Of a stretch of DNA of 14,166 nt, positions 500 to 14,166 are shown in pieces. This DNA is from a virus. Positions within the stretch are counted from its first letter, which is position 1. Every line of letters begins with the position of its first letter. A model generated the notes under the pieces. The model had not been told where the DNA came from. It ran no database searches and saw only the letters and a program-made list of their open reading frames with translations. A program made the translations under genes and the position numbers. The DNA lies in the UHGV virus genome UHGV-0065581; one strand, 5' to 3'.

Positions 500-1033
500 A
501 TGAACGCAAAAATCAGATACGGCCTGTCGGCTGCCGTTCTGGCACTGATTGCCGTCGGTGCGCCCGCGCCTGATATTCTCGACCAGTTTCTGGATGAAAA
601 AGAAGGTAACCACACAACGGCATACCGCGATGGGTCCGGCATCTGGACCATCTGTCGGGGTGCCACGATGGTGGATGGAAAACCCGTTTTTCCCGGTATG
701 AAACTGTCGAAGGAAAAATGCGACCAGGTCAACGCCATTGAGCGTGATAAGGCGCTGGCATGGGTGGAGCGCAATATTAAAGTACTACTGACCGAACCAC
801 AAAAAGCGGGTATAGCGTCATTCTGTCCCTATAACATTGGCCCCGGTAAGTGTTTCCCGTCGACGTTTTATAAGCGGCTGAATGCCGGTGATCGTAAGGG
901 CGCATGCGAGGCGATTCGCTGGTGGATAAAAGATGGTGGGCGCGATTGCCGCATACGTTCAAATAACTGCTATGGACAGGTTATTCGTCGTGACCAGGAA
1001 AGCGCATTAGCCTGTTGGGGGATAGAGCAGTGA
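500..1033 (+). CDS. SAR endolysin (phage lysozyme, T4-lysozyme-like glycoside hydrolase with N-terminal signal-anchor-release segment)
   Basis: 177-aa ORF. N-terminal weakly hydrophobic segment [18 protein letters not shown], then the catalytic signature [22 protein letters not shown] (Glu, 8 residues, Asp, 5 residues, Thr). Overall similarity to E. coli cryptic-prophage lysozymes (RrrD/RrrQ-like) from memory. Confidence 0.9.
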
Positions 1034-1491
1034 GCAGAGTCGCCGCGATTATTTATGCTTTGGTTATCTGCATCATCGTCTGCCTGTCGTGGGCGGTCAA
1101 TCATTACCGTGATAACGCCATCGCCTACAAAGAACAGCGTGATAAAAAAGTCAGTGAGCTGAAGCAGTCGATCGCCACCATCGCTGACATGCAGCAGCGT
1201 CAGCGTGATGTTGCTGCACTCGATGCAAAGTACTCGAGAGAATTAGCCAATGCGAAAGCTGAAAATGAAACTCTGCGCGCTGATGTTGCCGCTGGTCGTC
1301 GTCGGTTGCACATCAAAGCAGTCTGTCAGTCAGTGCGTGAAGCCACCACCGCCTCCGGCGTGGATAATGCAACCAGCCCCCGACTGGCAGACACCGCTGA
1401 ACGGGATTATTTCACCCTCAGAGAGAGGCTGATCACTATGCAAAAACAACTGGAAGGAACCCAGAAGTATATTAATGAGCAGTGCAGATAG
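1030..1491 (+). CDS. Rz: Rz i-spanin (inner-membrane spanin subunit)
   Basis: From GTG at 1030, which overlaps the endolysin stop (GTGA), the ORF reads [29 protein letters not shown]... and ends ...QKYINEQCR, closely resembling lambda Rz (about 153 aa). One N-terminal TM helix followed by a coiled-coil periplasmic domain. The supplied ORF track starts the frame earlier, at 1015. Confidence 0.9.
1250..1432 (+). CDS. Rz1: Rz1 o-spanin (outer-membrane lipoprotein), fully embedded in the +1 frame of Rz
   Basis: 60-aa [63 protein letters not shown] with lipobox LVVVGC and a proline-rich mature region; near-identical to lambda Rz1 from memory. An alternative start is the ATG at 1265. Confidence 0.85.
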
Positions 1492-1494
1492 AGC

Positions 1495-1512
1495 TGCCCA
1501 TATCGATGGGCA
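1495..1512. other. Short hairpin (TGCCCAT-atcg-ATGGGCA) between the convergent Rz and bor genes; possible bidirectional terminator or RNA end-protecting element
   Basis: 7-bp inverted repeat with a 4-nt loop read directly from the sequence, lying between the Rz stop (1489-1491) and the bor stop (1523-1525). No strong U-tract follows. Confidence 0.3.
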
Positions 1513-1522
1513 ACTCATGCAA

Positions 1523-1816
1523 TTATTGTGAGCAATACACACGCGCTTCCAGTGGAGTATAAATGCCTAAAGTAATAAAACCGAGAAATCCATTTACGAA
1601 TGTTTGCTGGGTTTCTGTTTTAACAACATTTTCTGCGCCGCCACAAATTTTGGCTGCATCAACAGTTTTCTCCTGTCCAATTCCCGAAACGAAGAAATGA
1701 TGGGTGATGGTTTCCTTTGGTGTTACTGCTGTCGGTTTGTTTCCAACAGTAAACGTCTGTTGAGCACATCCTGTAATAAGCATTGCCAGAGCGGCAGAAA
1801 ACAACATTTTTTTCAT
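1523..1816 (-). CDS. bor: Bor outer-membrane lipoprotein (lambda Bor / Iss family, serum-resistance associated)
   Basis: Minus-strand ORF. From the ATG at 1816-1814 it encodes 97 aa: MKKMLFSAALAMLITGCAQQTFTVGNKPTAVTPKETITHHFFVSGIGQEKTVDAAKICGGAENVVKTETQQTFVNGFLGFITLGIYTPLEARVYCSQ. Lipobox LITGC. Near-identical to lambda Bor from memory. The ORF track extends the frame 16 codons further upstream, to 1864. Confidence 0.9.
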   Translation of the reverse strand: MKKMLFSAALAMLITGCAQQTFTVGNKPTAVTPKETITHHFFVSGIGQEKTVDAAKICGGAENVVKTETQQTFVNGFLGFITLGIYTPLEARVYCSQ

Positions 1817-1996
1817 CTTATTATCCTGCATTGTTAAAAACGGCAGAATCCTATGTGACAACAATTAAACGATAGTTAAATGGATTGATGAAAATTAAAA
1901 CTATATAGGTGGATGCTCAGCCTATCGGAGGTAGTCAGGATTTGAATGTCAGTCTGTTGTCGGCATTCTGGCAATGCAATTTGGATAAAGCGGGGA

Positions 1997-2119
1997 TTAA
2001 AAAGATAGAGGCGAGCCGGTCAGGTAGAAATGAATCAGGCTCAAAGTGAAGCGGAAAAGGTCTGTGGCACAAGCTGATGCAGCCATAATTACAGCCTGAT
2101 GATTTGTGGAATGAAACAT
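1997..2119 (-). CDS. Hypothetical 40-aa protein with a consensus Shine-Dalgarno, in the bor-HNH intergenic pocket
   Basis: Minus-strand ATG at 2119-2117 is preceded by AAGGAGGT (complement of 2125-2132) with a 5-nt spacer. It reads MFHSTNHQAVIMAASACATDLFRFTLSLIHFYLTGSPLSF, stop TAA (complement of 1997-1999). It is below the 60-aa cut-off of the ORF track. The C-terminal half is hydrophobic. Confidence 0.35.
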   Translation of the reverse strand: MFHSTNHQAVIMAASACATDLFRFTLSLIHFYLTGSPLSF

Positions 2120-2200
2120 GTTGAACCTCCTTAATTGATGTTATTCGAGTGATGAAGGCATTCTGTCCTTCTATAGTGTCCAGTAAATCAAACAGGAAAC

Positions 2201-2220
2201 TTGTCCAACGTGTTGGACAA
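2201..2220. promoter_or_regulatory. Perfect palindrome TTGTCCAAC-gt-GTTGGACAA; candidate operator or protein-binding site
   Basis: 9-bp inverted repeat arms separated by 2 bp, read directly from the sequence. It sits in non-coding DNA about 120 bp upstream of the HNH start and about 80 bp upstream (minus-strand sense) of the small ORF at 2119. Confidence 0.4.
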
Positions 2221-2341
2221 GCCTCTCCATTAGTGAGTTGTATTGATCACAACTCTACAAAGAATTCATTACTGGGTAGATGAAAATAGTTTCACTATGA
2301 ATGGAGGAGGCTATGTCGGTGGCTTCTTCATTGGAGTACAT

Positions 2342-2692
2342 ATGCCCCCACGAATCCCACGCGCCTGCCGTAAGCGTGGATGTGCAGGTACAACCACAGA
2401 CAGTTCTGGTTACTGCGATAAACATCGTGGCGAAGGATGGGTACAGCATCAACGCGGACTGAGCCGCCACCAGCGTGGCTATGGCTCGAAATGGGATGCC
2501 ATACGTGCGCGCATACTGAAGCGTGATAATCATCTGTGTCAGAACTGCCTGCGCAATGGGAGAGCCGTTGAAGCCAGAACTGTGGACCACATCATTCCGA
2601 AAGCTCATGGTGGCACGGATGCAGACAGTAACCTGCAGAGTCTGTGCTGGCCCTGTCATAAAGCAAAAACAGCGCGCGAACGCATCAATTGA
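2342..2692 (+). CDS. HNH endonuclease, terminase-associated (HK97 gp74-like)
   Basis: From the ATG at 2342 (GGAG 5 nt upstream) it reads MPPRIPRACRKRGCAGTTTDSSGYCDKHRGEGW...DHIIPKAHGGTDADSNLQSLCWPCHKAKT, carrying a Cys-rich zinc-binding N-terminus and the H-N-H motif. It lies directly upstream of the small terminase. The ORF track starts at 2243, but that N-terminal extension has no good RBS and does not look like protein. Confidence 0.85.
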   Translation: MPPRIPRACRKRGCAGTTTDSSGYCDKHRGEGWVQHQRGLSRHQRGYGSKWDAIRARILKRDNHLCQNCLRNGRAVEARTVDHIIPKAHGGTDADSNLQSLCWPCHKAKTARERIN

Positions 2693-2839
2693 TAACAGTT
2701 CCCATCTGTAGGGGAGGGGCAGGTCAAATCTCTGCAACCCTGGCTGCTCAGTACCGCCGCCTGACCCTTCCTCACATCGCCGCAGGTTCGAAAACTTTTT
2801 TTGGAAATGTGAACAAACGATTGATAGGTAAGACCGATT

Positions 2840-3322
2840 ATGTCAGGACCTCCGAAAACCCCGCCACACCTGCATTTGATTCGAGGCAACCCCTCAAAGC
2901 GCCCCGTTAAAGACCACAAAAAAACCGCTAAAAAGGATGAAAAAGGTCTTCCTAAAATTCCGCAGCATTTAGGGGCTCAGGGGAAGTACTGGTTCAGGCG
3001 AATGGCGGAAGAGCTGAATGCGGAAGGGATCATTTCTCAGCTTGATGCGCGTGCGCTCGAGTTGCTGGTGGAAGCCTACACCGAATATCGGCATCACTGC
3101 GAAACACTCGATGTTGAGGGGTATACCTACCGCACGGAAACGCAGAGCGGTGATGTACTGATTAAGGCGCACCCCGCGGCGGCAATGAAAGCGGATGCCT
3201 GGAAGCGGATCCGGGCAATGCTTGCAGAGTTTGGTATGTCACCGGCAAGCCGGGCTAAAGTAAATATCGCCGGACCGGATGATGTTGATCCGCTGGCGGA
3301 GCTTTTAAAAGCGAGAGACTGA
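2840..3322 (+). CDS. terS: Terminase small subunit, P27 family
   Basis: 160-aa ORF with a basic, Pro-rich N-terminus (PPKTPPHLHLIRGNPSKRPVKD) and a C-terminus ending FGMSPASRAKVNIAG, typical of P27-family small terminases. Its stop overlaps the large-terminase start (TGATG). Confidence 0.85.
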   Translation: MSGPPKTPPHLHLIRGNPSKRPVKDHKKTAKKDEKGLPKIPQHLGAQGKYWFRRMAEELNAEGIISQLDARALELLVEAYTEYRHHCETLDVEGYTYRTETQSGDVLIKAHPAAAMKADAWKRIRAMLAEFGMSPASRAKVNIAGPDDVDPLAELLKARD

Positions 3323-5079
3323 TGGCAAAAGTGGCTGACGGGATCCGCTACGCCGAACGTGTTGTTGCAGGAGAAATTGTTGCTGGCGAATTTGTCCGCC
3401 TGGCCTGCCAGCGTTTTCTTGATGATCTGAAGTACGGCGAAAAGCGGGGGATTTATTTCAGTGAACCCCGTGCGCAGCACATCCTGAATTTCTACAAATT
3501 TGTGCCTCATGTAAAAGGGGCACTGGCAGGCCAGCCCATTGAGTTGATGGACTGGCATGTATTTATCCTCATTAATATTTTTGGTTTTGTCATTCCGCTG
3601 GTCAATGAAGAGACCGGGGAAGTTGTCATGCGCAGCGATGGCAGCGGACGTCCGGTGATGGTGCGCCGGTTCCGGACGGCGTACAACGAAGTCGCCCGTA
3701 AAAACGCAAAATCAACTCTGTCATCGGGTATCGGCCTGTATATGACGGGGGCAGATGGTGAAGGCGGAGCTGAGGTGTATTCAGCCGCAACCACGCGTGA
3801 CCAGGCCAGAATCGTGTTTGAAGACGCCAAAAATATGGTCAGAAAAGCCAGGTCGACACTCGGGCGGTTGTTTGATTTCAACAAGCTGGCGATTTACCAG
3901 GAGCAGAGCGCATCAAAATTTGAACCGCTTTCTTCGGATGCAAACAACCTGGATGGTCTGAACATCCACTGCGCCATTATTGATGAGCTGCATGCACATA
4001 AAACCCGTGACGTGTGGGACGTTCTGGAAACGGCAACCGGTGCCCGTCTGCAGTCCCTTTTATTTGGTATCACCACGGCAGGGTTTAACAAGGAAGGGAT
4101 TTGTTACGAGCAGCGTGATTACGCCATCAAGGTATTGCGTGGCTATAACAGCGACGTGGAGGGCGCTGTAAAAGACGACTCTTACTTTGCGATCATTTAC
4201 ACGCTTGATGAGGGAGATGATCCGTTTGATGAAACGGTCTGGCAGAAAGCGAATCCTGGCCTGGGCATCTGTAAACGCTGGGATGATCTGCGTCGTCTGG
4301 CGAAAAAAGCGAAAGAACAGGTCTCTGCGCGGGTGAATTTTTTTACCAAACACATGAATGTGTGGGTAACAGCAGAGTCTGCCTGGATGGACATGATTAA
4401 GTGGGAGAAGTGCGAATACATTGCCCCACGACATGAGCTGAAAACGTATCCCATGTGGGTCGGCGTTGACCTTGCTCATAAGATTGATATCTGTGCGGCG
4501 GCAAAACTCTGGCGAACGGATAACGGGCATGTTCATGCCGATTTTAAATTCTGGCTTCCGGAAGGACGGCTGGAACGATGCTCGCGGCAGCAGGCAGAAC
4601 TTTACCGGAAGTGGGCGGAGATGGATAAGCTGATTCTGACGGATGGTGATGTTATCGATCATGCTCAGATAAAAAGTGACTTACTGGAATGGATTGGTGG
4701 TGAAAACCTCAGGGAACTGGGATTTGACCCGTGGAGCGCAATGCAGTTCAGCCTGGCACTGGCTGAAGAAGGGATACCGCTGGTGGAGGTTCCGCAGACG
4801 GTCCGCAATCTGTCAGAGGCCATGAAGGAAACGGAATCACTGGTCTATGCCGGGCGTTTCCATCACAGCAATCATCCGGTCATGAACTGGATGATGTCTA
4901 ACGTTACGGTAAAACCGGACAAAAACGACAATATCTTCCCGAATAAATCCACGCTGGAAGCCAAAATCGACGGCCCTGTTGCGATGTTTACAGCAATGAG
5001 CCGGATGCTGGTCAATGGTGGTGAACCGGAGCTGGATCTGTCTGAACATCTGGTCAGCGTGGGCATCCGCTCGCTTTAA
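3322..5079 (+). CDS. terL: Terminase large subunit (ATPase and nuclease)
   Basis: 585-aa ORF immediately after terS, with a nucleotide-binding region near residue 100-130 (ARKNAKST) and an acidic nuclease-like C-terminal half. Size and position match the HK97-type large terminase. Confidence 0.9.
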
Positions 5080-6498: not shown

Positions 6499-7126
6499 TG
6501 TACCGCTGAGTCTGAAATCTGTCAGTGACTCCGGTGAGTTTGAAGGGTATGGCTCCGTCTTTGGTGTAAAGGACAGCCACGATGATGTGGTGATGTCCGG
6601 GGCATTTGCTGCTTCCCTGCGGGCGTGGAGTGACAGAAAAGCGTTACCTGCGCTGCTCTGGCAGCACCGCATGGATGAACCCATCGGTGTTTACACCGAA
6701 ATGAAGGAAGACGATGTCGGGCTTTACGTCAGGGGACGGTTGCTTATTGATGATGATCCCCTCGCAAAACGCGCACATGCACACATGAAGGCCGGTTCGT
6801 TAACCGGCCTTTCTATTGGGTACGTCCTGAAAGACTGGGAATACGACCGGAGCAAAGAAGCCTTTCTGCTGAAAGAAATCGACCTCTGGGAAGTCAGCCT
6901 GGTGACGTTCCCGTCTAACGACGAGGCGCGGATCAGCGACGTCAAGAACGCACTGGCCCGCGGGGAAATCCCCGAACAGAAAAAAATCGAAAGAGTCCTG
7001 CGTGATGTCGGACTCTCCCGTACCCAGGCCAAAGCATTCATGGCCGGGGGCTATGGCGCACTGTCCCTGCGCGACGCTGAGGATGTGGGCTCTGCACTGA
7101 ATGCACTGAAAAATCTGAACTTCTAA
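6476..7126 (+). CDS. Prohead maturation protease, HK97 family
   Basis: The ORF track gives 6440-7126. The ATG at 6476 (AAGGA upstream) gives MQTKQRLDVPLSLKSVSDSGEFEGYGSVFGVKDSHDDVV..., a typical prohead-protease N-terminus. It overlaps the portal 3' end and precedes the capsid gene, which is the conserved HK97 gene order. Confidence 0.82.
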   Translation: MQTKQRLDVPLSLKSVSDSGEFEGYGSVFGVKDSHDDVVMSGAFAASLRAWSDRKALPALLWQHRMDEPIGVYTEMKEDDVGLYVRGRLLIDDDPLAKRAHAHMKAGSLTGLSIGYVLKDWEYDRSKEAFLLKEIDLWEVSLVTFPSNDEARISDVKNALARGEIPEQKKIERVLRDVGLSRTQAKAFMAGGYGALSLRDAEDVGSALNALKNLNF

Positions 7127-7140
7127 TCAGGAGAAATACG

Positions 7141-8346
7141 ATGACGGTTGATATTAAAGATGTCGAACAGGTCGCGCAGGAGCTGCAGCAGAAGTTTGAC
7201 GACTTCAAAGCAAAGAACGACAAGCGCGTGGATGCGATTGAGCAGGAAAAAGGCAAACTTGCCGGGCAGGTGGAAACCCTGAACGGGAAACTCAGCGAGC
7301 TGGAAAACCTCAAAAGCGATCTTGAAAAAGAGCTGCTTGAGCTGAAACGTCCGGCAGGTGGTGCGCAAAATAAACTGGCCACCGAGCATAAAGAAGCGTT
7401 TGTGGGCTTCCTGCGTAAAGGCCGTGAAGATGGTCTGCGCGATCTGGAGCGCAAGGCATTACAGGTGGGCACCGATGAAGACGGCGGCTATGCCGTGCCG
7501 GAAGCACTGGATCGCAACATTCTCACCCTGCTGAAAGATGAAGTGGTGATGCGCCAGGAAGCCACGGTGATCAGCGTTGGTGGTTCCGACTACAAAAAAC
7601 TGGTGAATCTGGGCGGCACGGCTTCCGGATGGGTTGGCGAGACTGAAGCGCGCTCCCAGACTGCCACCTCAAAACTGGGCCTGATTGAACCGTTCATGGG
7701 GGAAATCTACGGTAACCCGCAGGCCACCCAGAAAATGCTGGATGATGCCTTTTTCAACGTGGAAGCATGGATCAACAGCGAGCTGGCAACCGAATTTGCC
7801 GAACAGGAAGAAATTGCCTTTACCACCGGCGATGGTACCAAGAAGCCGAAAGGGTTCCTGGCGTATGAGTCCACGGATGAAACAGACAAGGTCCGGGCGT
7901 TCGGCAAACTTCAGCATATTGTATCCGGCGAAGCGACGGCGGTGACCGCAGATGCCATTATCAAACTGATTTACACGCTGCGTAAGGCACACCGCACTGG
8001 CGCGAAGTTCATGATGAACAACAACAGTCTGTTTGCCATCCGTCTGCTGAAAGACAGTGAGGGTAACTATCTGTGGCGTCCGGGGCTGGAGCTGGGGCAG
8101 CCGTCCTCTCTGGCGGGTTACGCTATCGCTGAAAACGAACAGATGCCGGATATTGCCGCTGATGCGAAAGCCATTGCATTTGGTAACTTCAAACGAGGTT
8201 ACACCATCGTTGACCGTATCGGTACCCGCATTCTGCGTGACCCGTACACCAATAAACCGTTTGTCGGTTTTTATACCACCAAGCGCACCGGCGGCATGCT
8301 GGTCGATTCGCAGGCCATCAAACTGCTGAAGATTGCAGCGGCGTAA
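7141..8346 (+). CDS. Major capsid protein, HK97 fold, with N-terminal coiled-coil delta (scaffolding) domain
   Basis: 401-aa ORF with AGGAG upstream. The first ~100 aa are highly charged coiled coil (delta domain), followed by a capsid-like body. It follows the protease as in HK97. Confidence 0.9.
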   Translation: MTVDIKDVEQVAQELQQKFDDFKAKNDKRVDAIEQEKGKLAGQVETLNGKLSELENLKSDLEKELLELKRPAGGAQNKLATEHKEAFVGFLRKGREDGLRDLERKALQVGTDEDGGYAVPEALDRNILTLLKDEVVMRQEATVISVGGSDYKKLVNLGGTASGWVGETEARSQTATSKLGLIEPFMGEIYGNPQATQKMLDDAFFNVEAWINSELATEFAEQEEIAFTTGDGTKKPKGFLAYESTDETDKVRAFGKLQHIVSGEATAVTADAIIKLIYTLRKAHRTGAKFMMNNNSLFAIRLLKDSEGNYLWRPGLELGQPSSLAGYAIAENEQMPDIAADAKAIAFGNFKRGYTIVDRIGTRILRDPYTNKPFVGFYTTKRTGGMLVDSQAIKLLKIAAA

Positions 8347-8353
8347 TCATTCA

Positions 8354-8381
8354 GGGGGCGCAGAAGTGCGCCCCCTGTTCT
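8354..8381 (+). terminator. Stem-loop GGGGGCGCA-gaag-TGCGCCCCC followed by a weak T-rich stretch, directly after the capsid gene
   Basis: Perfect 9-bp GC-rich stem with a 4-nt loop, starting 8 nt after the capsid stop codon; followed by TGTTCT. Confidence 0.55.
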
Positions 8382-8397
8382 GACAGGTGAAAGAATC

Positions 8398-8586
8398 ATG
8401 ATCCTGAAACAAGATCTGAAATGGTCACCGGACGGTATGCGTGTTGAGATTATTCGGGCCGGTGAGTATGAAGATAAAGAATTACCCGAACGGGTACGAG
8501 AAATTGCCACTGCAGCTGGGATTGTCTCTGATAAGAGAACACCTGTTGCGCGGGGGGCTGATAAGTCTAAAAAACAGCATTCATAG
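8398..8586 (+). CDS. Hypothetical protein (62 aa) between capsid and head-tail connector genes
   Basis: ATG with AGGTGA upstream; MILKQDLKWSPDGMRVEIIRAGEYEDKELPERVREIATAAGIVSDKRTPVARGADKSKKQHS. It fills the gap between neighbouring genes. No family recognised. Confidence 0.45.
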   Translation: MILKQDLKWSPDGMRVEIIRAGEYEDKELPERVREIATAAGIVSDKRTPVARGADKSKKQHS

Positions 8587-11501: not shown

Positions 11502-14166
11502 GTGTGGCGACATTACGTGAACTGATTATTAAAATCTCGGCAAATTCCCGGTCATTCCAGTCAGAGATCTCCCGGGCTTCGCGTATGGGGCAGGATTACT
11601 ACCGTACCATGCAGAACGGAGGCCGGCAGTCCGCTGCTGCATCCCGTGAAATGCGGCGTGCACTGGCAGAAGTGACGGATCAGATAAATACAGCTAAATC
11701 TTCGGCACTGAATATGGCGGGGGCATTTGCCGGAGCTTTTGCTACCGGTCATCTTATTTCTCTCGCCGATGAGTGGAATTCAGTAAATGCCCGTCTGAAG
11801 CAGGCCTCACAGTCCAGTGATGATTTTCAGTCATCACAGCGTGAATTAATGGCGATCAGCCAGAGAACGGGGACGGCGTTTTCTGATAACGCCAGCCTTT
11901 TTGCCCGCTCTGCAGCTTCCATGCGGGAGTATGGCTACAGTTCTGAGGAGGTACTGAAAGTCACCGAGGCGATCTCCACGGGCCTGAAATTATCCGGTGC
12001 CAGTACAGCAGAAGCCAGTTCGGTGATCACGCAGTTCAGTCAGGCACTGGCGCAGGGAGTGCTGCGCGGTGAAGAGTTTAACTCGGTGAATGAGAACGGC
12101 GATCGTGTTATTCGTGCGCTGGCTGCGGGAATGGGTGTTGCCCGTAAGGATCTGAAGGCCATGGCGGATAACGGAAAACTGACCGCCGATAAGGTTGTTC
12201 CTGCACTGATTAGTCAGCTTGGGGCGTTGCGTGATGAATATGCAGCAATGCCTGATACTGTTTCATCCTCTGCAACCAAAGTTGAAAACGCCTTTATGGC
12301 CTGGGTTGGTGGTGCGAACGAGGCAAGCGGAGTGACAAAGACACTCACCGGGGTGTTGAATGGTGTTGCAGACAATATTGATACCGTGGCTGCTGCAGCT
12401 GGCGCACTGGTTGCCGTCGGGGTAGCCCGATATTTTGGCAATATGGCGTCGTCTGCTGGATCTGCAACTGCCGGATTAATTACTGCAGCCAGAAACGAAG
12501 TGGCTCTTGCTGAAGTGCAACTTCGGGGGACACAGATAGCAACCGCCAGGGCGCGTGCGGCGGTTTATCGTGCGCAACAGGCGGTTGTTGCTGCTCGCGG
12601 TACCGAAAGGCAGGCCGCAGCAGAAGCGAAGCTGACAGCTGCCCAGGCGTCACTTACCCGTAATATTGCGGCCAGAACAGCGGCACAGACAACGCTGAAT
12701 ACTGTCACGTCAGTGGGGAGTCGTCTGTTAAGTGGTGCGCTGGGGGTGGTTGGTGGTGTGCCGGGACTCGTCATGCTGGGGGCGACGGCCTGGTACACGA
12801 TGTATCAGAATCAGGAGCAGGCCAGAGAATCTGCACGACAGTATGCCGCAACAATCGACGAAATTCGCCAGAAAACGTCGGCAATGTCGCTTCCTGAAGC
12901 GTCAGATAATGAGGAAAAGACGCGGCAGGCACTTGATGAACAAAACAGGTTAATTGACGAGCAGAAAAGTAAGATTAAATCCTTACAGGAAAAAATTGCT
13001 GGCTATCAGTATGTGCTGGCAAACCCGGGCTGGACAACCGATAACGGTTTTATGATTAACCACATGACGTCGGTAAAAACTGTCACAGAAGGGCTTGCAG
13101 AAGCAACAAATCAACTGGCAGTTGAACAGTCCCGTCTCACACAAATGCAGGGCAAAGCGCAATCCATTCAGGATGTGCTTGCCGGGCTGGAGGAGCGACG
13201 GGTGGCGTTGATCCGTCAACAGGCAGCGGAACAAAACAAAGCGTATCAGTCCCTGTTGATCATGAATGGGCAGCATACCGAGTTTAATCGCCTTCTCGGG
13301 CTCGGTAATGAATTACTTCAGCAGCGACAGGGGCTGGTGAATGTACCGTTACGGCTACCACAGGCAACCCTGGATGATAAACAGCAGACCGCACTGAATA
13401 ACAGCGAGCGCGAACTGGCTCTGTCCCGCCTGAAGGGGGAAGCTCGTGAGCGTGCCCGCCTGGGTTATGCTGCGGATGATCTCGGCTTTGTGGGAGAGGC
13501 GTATCAGACAGCCAGACAGAATTATATCAATAACTCACTGGATGCCTGGCGAAATAATCAGGCAAATAAACCCAAAGCGCATAAAAAGACCGAAGCGGAA
13601 AAAACAGAAGATATTTATAAACGGCTGATTAAACAGCAAAAAGAACAAATAGCACTGGCAGGGCAGAATACTGAACTGGCTAAGATGAAATATCAGGTCA
13701 GTCAGGGCGAATTATCAACCCTGTCAGAAGCGCAGAAAAAAACGCTTTTGCAGAATGCAGCACTCATTGACCAGAAAAAGATTCGTGAGCAGCTTGCTGC
13801 GTATGAGAGCAGTCTGGCGGACAGTAATGCCAGTGCCCGGGCATCTGACGAAGCGCAGTTGCTGGGATATGGTGAAGGCTCACGGATGCGTGAACGACTC
13901 CAGGAAATGTGGAGTATCCGGCAGGCGTTTGAGCAGAAAAATAACGAGCTGCTGAGACAGTATCAGGCCGGAGAAATTGAAGAAGCCCTGTGGAAACAGG
14001 AGAAAGAACTGAATAAAAAATATCTGGAAGAGCGTCTCAGCGATCAGCAGGATTATTATGCAAAGGCTGATGCTTTACGCAGTAACTGGAATGCCGGACT
14101 CCAGGAGGGACTGACGAACTGGGCAGACAGTGCCACCGATTATGCTTCGCAGGCGGCAGATGCTGT
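11498..14166 (+). CDS. Tail tape measure protein, N-terminal ~889 codons; continues beyond the window
   Basis: ATG at 11498 (GGAGA upstream, ATGA overlap with the GT stop) opens a frame that reads MSVALRELIIKISANSRSFQSEISRASRMGQDYYRTMQNGG... The ORF track lists no stop-terminated ORF in this frame to the window end, consistent with an unbroken frame. Ala/Gln-rich helical composition and position after G/GT are typical of tape measure proteins. Confidence 0.85.
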   Translation, partial: MSVATLRELIIKISANSRSFQSEISRASRMGQDYYRTMQNGGRQSAAASREMRRALAEVTDQINTAKSSALNMAGAFAGAFATGHLISLADEWNSVNARLKQASQSSDDFQSSQRELMAISQRTGTAFSDNASLFARSAASMREYGYSSEEVLKVTEAISTGLKLSGASTAEASSVITQFSQALAQGVLRGEEFNSVNENGDRVIRALAAGMGVARKDLKAMADNGKLTADKVVPALISQLGALRDEYAAMPDTVSSSATKVENAFMAWVGGANEASGVTKTLTGVLNGVADNIDTVAAAAGALVAVGVARYFGNMASSAGSATAGLITAARNEVALAEVQLRGTQIATARARAAVYRAQQAVVAARGTERQAAAEAKLTAAQASLTRNIAARTAAQTTLNTVTSVGSRLLSGALGVVGGVPGLVMLGATAWYTMYQNQEQARESARQYAATIDEIRQKTSAMSLPEASDNEEKTRQALDEQNRLIDEQKSKIKSLQEKIAGYQYVLANPGWTTDNGFMINHMTSVKTVTEGLAEATNQLAVEQSRLTQMQGKAQSIQDVLAGLEERRVALIRQQAAEQNKAYQSLLIMNGQHTEFNRLLGLGNELLQQRQGLVNVPLRLPQATLDDKQQTALNNSERELALSRLKGEARERARLGYAADDLGFVGEAYQTARQNYINNSLDAWRNNQANKPKAHKKTEAEKTEDIYKRLIKQQKEQIALAGQNTELAKMKYQVSQGELSTLSEAQKKTLLQNAALIDQKKIREQLAAYESSLADSNASARASDEAQLLGYGEGSRMRERLQEMWSIRQAFEQKNNELLRQYQAGEIEEALWKQEKELNKKYLEERLSDQQDYYAKADALRSNWNAGLQEGLTNWADSATDYASQAADA

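Follow-up and report, generated by a model that had tools for sequence, protein, structure and literature searches.

The stretch of DNA analysed here, 14,166 nucleotides (nt) of the virus genome UHGV-0065581 (hereafter ‘the window’), carries on its minus strand a compact cassette, in which two promoter-like sequences of the type recognised by phage RNA polymerases lie on either side of an RNA hairpin and face a 40-codon hydrophobic open reading frame (ORF). The initial annotation had drawn attention to a perfect 20-bp palindrome and an adjacent second repeat, rightly placing both between the small minus-strand ORF (1997–2119) and the HNH (2342–2692) and terminase (2840–5079) genes, and had proposed an operator, a terminase or host-factor binding site near cos, or an RNA structure on the late transcript. 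As we describe below, that reading is partly supported: it missed the flanking T7-type and SP6-type promoters, the first of which is overlapped at its positions −13 to −7 by the second repeat. The cassette consists of the following elements:

2235–2255, no strand assigned: inverted repeat GAGTTGT-N7-ACAACTC, one arm of which is promoter A −13 to −7 and the other lies just upstream of promoter A

2223–2245 (read 2245→2223), minus strand: promoter A, a T7-group (Berlinvirus-type) promoter-like 23-mer, CAATACAACTCACTAATGGAGAG, with the predicted start at the G at 2228

2196–2225 (read 2225→2196), minus strand: extended 13-bp RNA hairpin GAGGCUUGUCCAA-CACG-UUGGACAAGUUUC with a 4-nt loop, at approximately +4 to +33 of the predicted promoter-A transcript

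2200–2221, no strand assigned: core inverted repeat CTTGTCCAAC-gt-GTTGGACAAG, from the sequence and the repeat finder

2166–2188 (read 2188→2166), minus strand: promoter B, an SP6-group (Vectrevirus/K1E-type) promoter-like 23-mer, ATTTACTGGACACTATAGAAGGA, with the predicted start at the G at 2171

2126–2132 (read 2132→2126), minus strand: Shine-Dalgarno sequence AAGGAGG, 6 nt upstream of the ATG and invariant in nine divergent versions of the cassette

1997–2119 (read 2119→1997), minus strand: 40-codon hydrophobic ORF, the presumed payload, taken from the ORF list and annotated as hypothetical in ON470612

The core inverted repeat occupies positions 2200–2221, its 10-nt arms (2200–2209 and 2212–2221) being 100% complementary and separated by a 2-nt spacer, and it is the third-longest inverted repeat of the 14-kb window. 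The symmetry is real, and each arm extends one base beyond the version first described, but as the GT at the centre is not self-complementary, this is a 10+10 inverted repeat with a 2-nt spacer and not a strict 20-bp palindrome. A 16-bp core, GTCCAACRYGTTGGAC, is common to the copies in phage SfIV, in Klebsiella phages and in SP6-like phages. Looking for the dyad elsewhere in the prophage yielded a single copy: the half-site does not occur a second time within the window, and allowing up to three mismatches we found no further copy of the 16-bp core in the first 50 kb of ON470612 (a near-identical, prophage-bearing phage record of 53 kb) or in the 39.8-kb phage SfIV. A second repeat, GAGTTGT-attgatc-ACAACTC, is present at 2235–2255 as described; its pairing is kept on the plus strand via one T-A to C-G change with G·U intermediates, although in four haplotypes only, and mosaic recombination fits this pattern too.

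Over 18 contiguous bases, promoter A agrees with the phi9 promoter annotated in the Yersinia phage Yepe2 (Berlinvirus): its segment AATACAACTCACTAATGG is identical to Yepe2 phi9, every deviation from the Berlinvirus consensus occurs in some natural Yepe2 promoter, and the SfIV allele is identical to Yepe2 phi17 at 23 of 24 positions. It matches promoters of ~39-kb T7-like phages and, as judged by its sequence, is a putative T7-group promoter, with the −17 to +6 consensus, the −12 to −8 specificity region and the initiating GG. Promoter B is from 2188 to 2167 identical at all 22 positions to the promoters of phage K1E at 13925 and 24431, and K1E/K1-5-like phages carry 28–29-nt matches to it (96–97% identity) at six to nine places per genome. 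This match to a sequenced phage, over the ~23-bp consensus (−17 to +6) of the SP6 group (Molineuxvirinae), identifies it as a predicted promoter of that group; 200 shuffles of the window yielded no match with two or fewer mismatches. The two promoters lie in tandem on the minus strand with their start sites 57 nt apart, and there is no third one within the window: only these two, within 80 bases. No sigma-70-like promoter for either the small ORF or HNH was found in 1400–3000. Furthermore, ON470612 has 71 annotated features in its first 50 kb (72 in total), none of them a phage-type RNA polymerase, and SfIV has none annotated either.

The RNA predicted to start from promoter A, at the G at 2228, begins with GGAGAGGCUUGUCCAACACGUUGGACAAGUUUCC and folds into a 13-bp stem of approximately −20 kcal/mol; the same segment on the opposite strand is 6 kcal/mol weaker. 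To avoid circularity, we chose six E. coli genomes at 86–96% identity to the region irrespective of the dyad, and only then aligned them. Standard pairs make up 94.9% of the pair cells in the nine distinct versions from E. coli and Shigella, compared with 32–49% when the partner is slid by one to three columns, and the covariation score was reached by none of 500 shuffles. Two hairpin pairs have changed on both sides (C-G to U-A and A-U to C-G, in three sequences) and five vary one-sidedly; at five pairs G·U alternates with G-C or A-U, and the flanking G·U pairs of the window are G-C or A-U in other versions. In the E. coli strains O157:H7 BB24-1, IAI39, 1916D6 and WL297, GTCTCAC..GTGAGAC replaces GTCCAAC..GTTGGAC, that is, two adjacent pairs have changed on both sides. 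Pairing is thus kept in the homologues by compensatory and wobble changes, as expected of a conserved RNA hairpin, and chance symmetry, which would have left the dyad absent or degenerate in close relatives, does not account for it.

The pairs also carry information on the strand. Seventeen pair cells are G·U or U·G on the minus strand and C·A mismatches on the plus strand; the copy at locus L153, which was found without requiring a palindrome, has a 3-nt centre and a U·G pair; and in 1916D6 and WL297 the innermost arm position is unpaired (C opposite A), as for a loop base. Wobble cells that exist only on the minus strand, a variable centre and an unpaired innermost base together favour a minus-strand RNA (or single-strand) hairpin over a duplex site for a symmetric dimer. 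Of the initial proposal of an RNA structure on the late transcript, the RNA structure therefore stands and the strand does not. The annotated promoters of Yepe2 have 5′ leader hairpins at the equivalent position. A search of Rfam returned no known RNA family at the gathering score, the sole weak match being an irrelevant small nucleolar RNA (E = 0.67). A T7 class II pause signal (an ATCTGTT-like CCTGTTT that follows the hairpin) was considered and rejected, as it is not conserved: the SfIV counterpart is CCTACTT.

The same hairpin is found in lytic phages. Phage SP6 (NC_004831) has nine copies of GTCYAAC-RY-GTTGGAC (allowing up to three mismatches), seven of them intergenic and three located 7–15 nt upstream of SP6 promoters; those at 8547, 9383 and 30569 form extended imperfect stems of ~25 bp, 30–40 nt before start codons. 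The core is also present several times per genome in ~44-kb SP6-like metagenomic contigs, which in addition contain the variant GTCTCAC/GTGAGAC at the position homologous to SP6 8547. A sense-strand U·G is present in six of the nine SP6 copies, although over the twelve lytic loci compared, wobble pairs favour the sense strand only weakly (7 vs 3). As judged from its sequence, the SP6-like phage hairpin is plausibly an RNase III-type processing or stabilising element; we know of no published name for it. The hairpin is absent from K1E and Yepe2. At 13913–13924 of K1E (L157), TTGTCTAACATG is the left half of the SP6 hairpin and abuts the −17 edge of a promoter identical to promoter B. The core is found within coding sequence too, at 7071 and 17752 of SP6 (L125) and at 8005 of K1E; one such copy, in the primase/helicase gene, encodes ..MSNVLDK.. 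and is kept across SP6-like contigs, and is degenerate in K1E.

A scan of a viral contig collection with the 16-bp core GTCCAACGNGTTGGAC matched relatives of the window as well as unrelated contexts. Searching for the T7-type promoter core plus the dyad returned 72 viral contigs. When both promoter cores were sought irrespective of the dyad, 59 were returned, all of which have the hairpin save for three chance matches (L154–L156); L153, the fourth new locus of this dyad-free scan, is a true cassette. In metagenomes the long stem was found in true cassettes only, and was lacking in ~70 chance matches. After removal of duplicates, the divergent versions are the window/SfIV type, the Klebsiella type (TTAATGCGACTCACTATAGGAGA, hairpin, ATTTAATAGTGGCCAGTATAGAAGGG), L066 and L129, and L153. 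All have the same order – promoter A, a hairpin with the same core, promoter B, a strong Shine-Dalgarno sequence and a hydrophobic ORF of 36–44 codons – and in every case the cassette is antisense and placed between the end of the spanin genes and the small terminase gene, irrespective of terminase type.

The Klebsiella version is found in Klebsiella temperate phages such as ST101-KPC2phi6.1, so that at least two host genera have temperate phages with the cassette. The T7-type promoter of the Klebsiella version is similar to T7 phi9, and its promoter B matches three to six sites per genome in 44–46-kb Klebsiella podophages, indicating that promoter specificity follows the lytic phages of the host genus. 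Klebsiella-type cassettes alone (L038, L015, L086 and others) have a further perfect palindrome, GTCTC(C/T)TATAAGAGAC, ~25 nt upstream of the T7-type promoter. A scan of one genome per species for promoter A plus the dyad gave no matches; the cassette is recorded in phages of E. coli, Shigella and Klebsiella. Some 634 E. coli records contain the region, and among complete E. coli genomes it is present in 633 of 5426 (approximately one in nine), ST131 and O157:H7 among them.

The product of the small ORF, MFHSTNHQAVIMAASACATDLFRFTLSLIHFYLTGSPLSF, is hydrophobic, with a grand average of hydropathy (GRAVY) of 0.67, and the ORF has exactly 40 codons in all 14 alleles. In codons 24–40 all differences from the window are synonymous (proportion of non-synonymous differences, pN, 0; of synonymous differences, pS, 0.07–0.22), and as each of these synonymous sites falls on the second position of a codon in the spanin frame of the opposite strand, the pattern points to constraint on the small ORF itself. 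The cassette peptides are hydrophobic throughout (GRAVY 0.45–1.5), and those of Klebsiella, L129 and L153 have in common the loose motif I..I...C...K.YG. Neither the ORF nor its counterparts matched a family in Pfam, NCBIfam, PHROGs or PADLOC; a protein database search with the window ORF returned only E. coli entries, unnamed or ‘hypothetical’; and tblastn found no homologues of the peptides in lytic phages. No terminator-like site was found on the minus strand between 1997 and 1865.

The cassette is embedded in the lysis-packaging region, the layout of which we took from the ORFs of the window and from ON470612:

500–1033, plus strand: endolysin

1015–1491, plus strand: Rz

1523–1816, minus strand: bor lipoprotein gene, mapped onto the window from the ON470612 annotation; the next gene on the strand of the small ORF

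2342–2692, plus strand: HNH

2840–5079, plus strand: terminase genes

downstream of terminase, plus strand: portal and HK97-type head genes

The plus-strand ORF that ends at 2049 (1909–2049) is a 3′ remnant of a LysC/Rz1-like o-spanin gene, the complete form of which is found in SfIV and in some prophages of E. coli, and the small minus-strand ORF overlaps this remnant antisense. To the left of ~1931 the window turns lambda-like (the bor region is 98.5% identical to lambda), which places a mosaic junction near 1931. The SfIV record starts 67 nt before the small terminase gene and ends 58 nt past the HNH stop; cos is expected at 2693–2839 of the window, between the HNH stop and the small terminase start. 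Two other inverted repeats are present in the window: the longest of all, CAGGGGGCGCA-N4-TGCGCCCCCTG at 8352–8377, lies 6 nt past the stop of the major capsid gene (7141–8346) and is probably a post-capsid terminator or stabilising hairpin, and a perfect 9+9 repeat, TAAAGTTAC-g-GTAACTTTA, is located at 135–153, upstream of the lysis genes.

On balance, we infer that the cassette probably allows the RNA polymerase of a superinfecting T7-like or SP6/K1E-like phage to express a small membrane peptide. Since the prophage has no annotated single-subunit RNA polymerase of its own, the cassette would stay silent as long as no T7-like (Berlinvirus-type) or SP6/K1E-like podophage has entered the lysogen and made its polymerase. 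Reading the minus strand in the order promoter A (2245→2223), hairpin (2225→2196), promoter B (2188→2166), 5′ leader, AAGGAGG and ORF (2119→1997), either invader polymerase would then transcribe the small ORF and, by presumed read-through, probably bor after it. The hairpin at the 5′ end of the promoter-A transcript would most likely stabilise or process the RNA, as in the natural T7-group leaders, and may possibly serve as a weak insulator against the host polymerase as well, as suggested by a terminator-like call at this site; the unit of a hairpin followed by a promoter corresponds to the module that SP6-like phages have between their own genes. The likely result would be the sudden production of a small membrane-active peptide, by which the infection is aborted or excluded. 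Going further, and only tentatively, the cassette may be a dedicated infection sensor of temperate phages of E. coli, Shigella and Klebsiella, made of nucleic-acid signals only, with one promoter for each of the two main podophage polymerase families that attack the host, a hairpin borrowed from the transcripts of the invader and a membrane peptide that would kill or shut down the cell, or block the invader, once the foreign polymerase is present. If true, this would amount to immune sensing through promoter mimicry, with no protein sensor.

Several observations weigh against expression of the peptide by an invader polymerase. The hairpin of the Klebsiella versions is core-only and shows no strand bias, and the promoter-B transcript excludes the hairpin, leaving its role in an SP6-type infection unexplained; moreover, its near-invariant sequence implies a sequence-specific partner. 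Read-through transcripts would enter the lysis genes antisense, with no obvious purpose. In codons 2–23 of the small ORF the changes are mostly non-synonymous (pN 0.28 vs pS 0.13), and so half of the peptide appears unconstrained. In some lineages the promoters have changed while the hairpin and the ORF stay intact: promoter A from CTCACTA to CTCGCTA in O157:H7 (L159) and IAI39 (L163), and promoter B from TATAG to TACAG (RM10466, L160) or from CACTATAGAA to CAGTATAGGA. These point changes could reflect decay or altered specificity. In L092 (IMGVR_UViG_2778261354_000001) an IS66-family (ISEc22-like) insertion at +4 of promoter B separates the small ORF from both promoters; the DNA past promoter B had been considered as a different cargo, which was rejected once it was identified as this insertion. 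Taken together, the point changes and the insertion suggest decay or counter-selection. Finally, our literature search returned no experimental report of these promoters firing or of activity of the peptide.

Could the hairpin, as RNA or DNA, instead be the site for a sequence-specific factor of an SP6-like phage or of the host, for example one involved in RNase III-type processing or a translational or transcriptional regulator, with the prophage copy plugging its transcript into the RNA-processing or regulatory circuit of the invader? The core is conserved far more strictly than stability alone needs, the ~25-bp stems before start codons at SP6 8547, 9383 and 30569 resemble T7 RNase III sites, and the sense-strand U·G in six of nine SP6 copies fits as well. 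Yet at 13 bp the hairpin of the window would be a short RNase III substrate, lytic contigs show only a weak wobble bias, no factor has been identified, and K1E is without the hairpin although promoter B copies the K1E promoter exactly; we therefore consider such a factor site unlikely.

Two further explanations are, in our judgement, improbable. The first is that the hairpin, with its U-rich tail UUUCCUGUUUGAUUU, acts as an insulator or intrinsic terminator that halts host polymerase arriving antisense to the HNH and terminase genes, so that an uninfected lysogen does not express the small ORF whereas phage polymerases pass – a role that could coexist with expression of the peptide from promoters A and B. 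A relaxed terminator scan flags exactly the hairpin site on the minus strand (13 pairs), and the stem is stable and lies immediately upstream of the ORF leader. However, the U-run is interrupted (tail UUUCCUGUUUG) and is in part just the AT-rich upstream end of promoter B, no U-tract follows the hairpin in the Klebsiella, L066, L129 or SP6 copies, and we found no upstream minus-strand gene or promoter that would need terminating.

The second, to which we attach similarly little weight, is that the cassette is a recombination relic or a mobile regulatory module copied from SP6-like phages, either functionless or of use only as homologous sequence through which DNA is exchanged with lytic phages. 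The abundance of the core in SP6 (nine copies, three of them 7–15 nt upstream of an SP6 promoter) and in ~44-kb SP6-like contigs (several copies each), the variant hairpin at the homologous SP6-like position, and the promoter mutations and insertion in some prophage copies would all fit such an origin. A relic, however, would not be expected to retain two classes of promoter, a compensated hairpin, an invariant Shine-Dalgarno sequence and an intact ORF across E. coli, Shigella and Klebsiella phages, nor to track the promoter type of the podophages of the local host; in addition, the search of lytic phages gave no homologue of the peptides.

It is very improbable that the dyad is an operator bound by a dimeric protein, or a packaging site for terminase or a host factor. 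In favour are its perfect symmetry and operator length, and the symmetric double changes from GTCCAAC/GTTGGAC to GTCTCAC/GTGAGAC, which would also fit a co-evolving dimer. Against this, a single copy was found in each of the two sequences searched (the prophage-bearing record over its first 50 kb, and SfIV); the element is common to phages with unrelated repressor regions and three different small-terminase types; its centre is 2 or 3 nt; its stem has G·U pairs that are mismatches in duplex symmetry; and it lies ~530 nt from cos. More specifically, a CI/Cro-type repressor operator, for which several copies at regulated promoters, a fixed half-site spacing and linkage to a cognate regulator gene would be expected, was rejected: there is a single copy per genome, the spacing varies (2 nt here, 3 nt in L153), and the element is shared across different immunity regions. 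A cos or terminase site was rejected on distance: the dyad is ~140 nt upstream of the HNH start, while the genome end of SfIV, ~530 nt from the dyad, is 58 nt past the HNH stop. A P2 Ogr/P4 delta site was likewise rejected; while the window fits TGT-N12-ACA, SfIV has CGT-N12-ACA, and both phages have Q-type antiterminators and no Ogr-like gene.

The closest precedent appears to be the ‘T7 islands’: in 2006, Chen and Schneider reportedly described tandem T7-like promoter regions in enterobacterial genomes and prophage-like DNA. These are reported to comprise two or three T7-like promoters within 150–620 bases in prophage-like islands of 4–13 kb that have no polymerase gene, and the promoter clusters are said to be placed such that they would transcribe two to five phage-related proteins. 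The cassette resembles them in having two T7-supergroup promoters in tandem on one strand of enteric prophage-like DNA with no cognate polymerase gene, and, as it is carried by O157:H7 and Shigella, genomes of the sort reportedly surveyed in 2006, the locus is very likely of the T7-island kind. It differs from the islands so described in that it belongs to a lambdoid prophage, has 57 nt between its start sites and points at a 40-codon ORF. What may add to the 2006 description are the hairpin with its counterpart in SP6-like phages, the host-matched promoter pairing in Klebsiella and the small hydrophobic cargo.

A T7-group promoter followed by a leader stem-loop is familiar from the T7 phi10 leader, and as at the T7-group promoters phi9, phi10 and phi17 of Yepe2, a 23-bp promoter is followed here by a hairpin that starts within a few bases of +1. 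Unlike in those leaders, the hairpin sequence is that of SP6-group phages, and the unit resides in a temperate phage without such a polymerase. With the SP6-like phage hairpin, GTCYAAC-NN-GTTGGAC, the prophage copy has the 16-bp core in common without a change, in many cases with an SP6-type promoter starting a few bases downstream, and the same compensatory variant, GTCTCAC/GTGAGAC, occurs in lytic and prophage copies; the SP6 hairpin, in contrast, is located on the polycistronic transcripts of the phage itself and its stems sometimes reach ~25 bp.

The cassette also invites comparison with the morons of lambdoid phages (bor and lom, for example), which are inserted in the late operon as independent transcription units, have host sigma-70 promoters and are expressed in the lysogen. 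Like a moron, it is small, would be transcribed separately, and lies on the opposite strand where the lysis and packaging genes meet, adjoining bor; unlike morons, it has only phage-polymerase promoters, with no sigma-70 promoter detected. The toxins of type I toxin-antitoxin systems (Hok, Ldr, TisB) are small and hydrophobic, as are the 36–44-residue peptides of the cassette with their hydrophobic stretch, although here we found no antisense promoter, no known RNA family and no similarity to known toxin families. In engineered suicide cassettes, a phage-specific promoter drives a lethal gene; by analogy, the arrangement described here may follow the same logic of expression conditional on a trigger through a phage-specific promoter.

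If the cassette works as we propose, it would be a natural case of detecting a virus via the virus’s own orthogonal transcription machinery. Detection logic based on phage polymerases is used in synthetic biology, and its use in natural anti-phage defence is not established in the literature we searched. The tandem T7-like promoter regions noted in 2006 would thereby gain a testable role, and attention is drawn to a conserved hairpin of SP6-like phages. K1E is a relative of K1-5; these capsule-specific phages are therapy candidates against extraintestinal E. coli. Since approximately one in nine E. coli genomes carries the cassette, and since promoter B is the same as the promoters of K1E, the cassette could affect the success of phage therapy.

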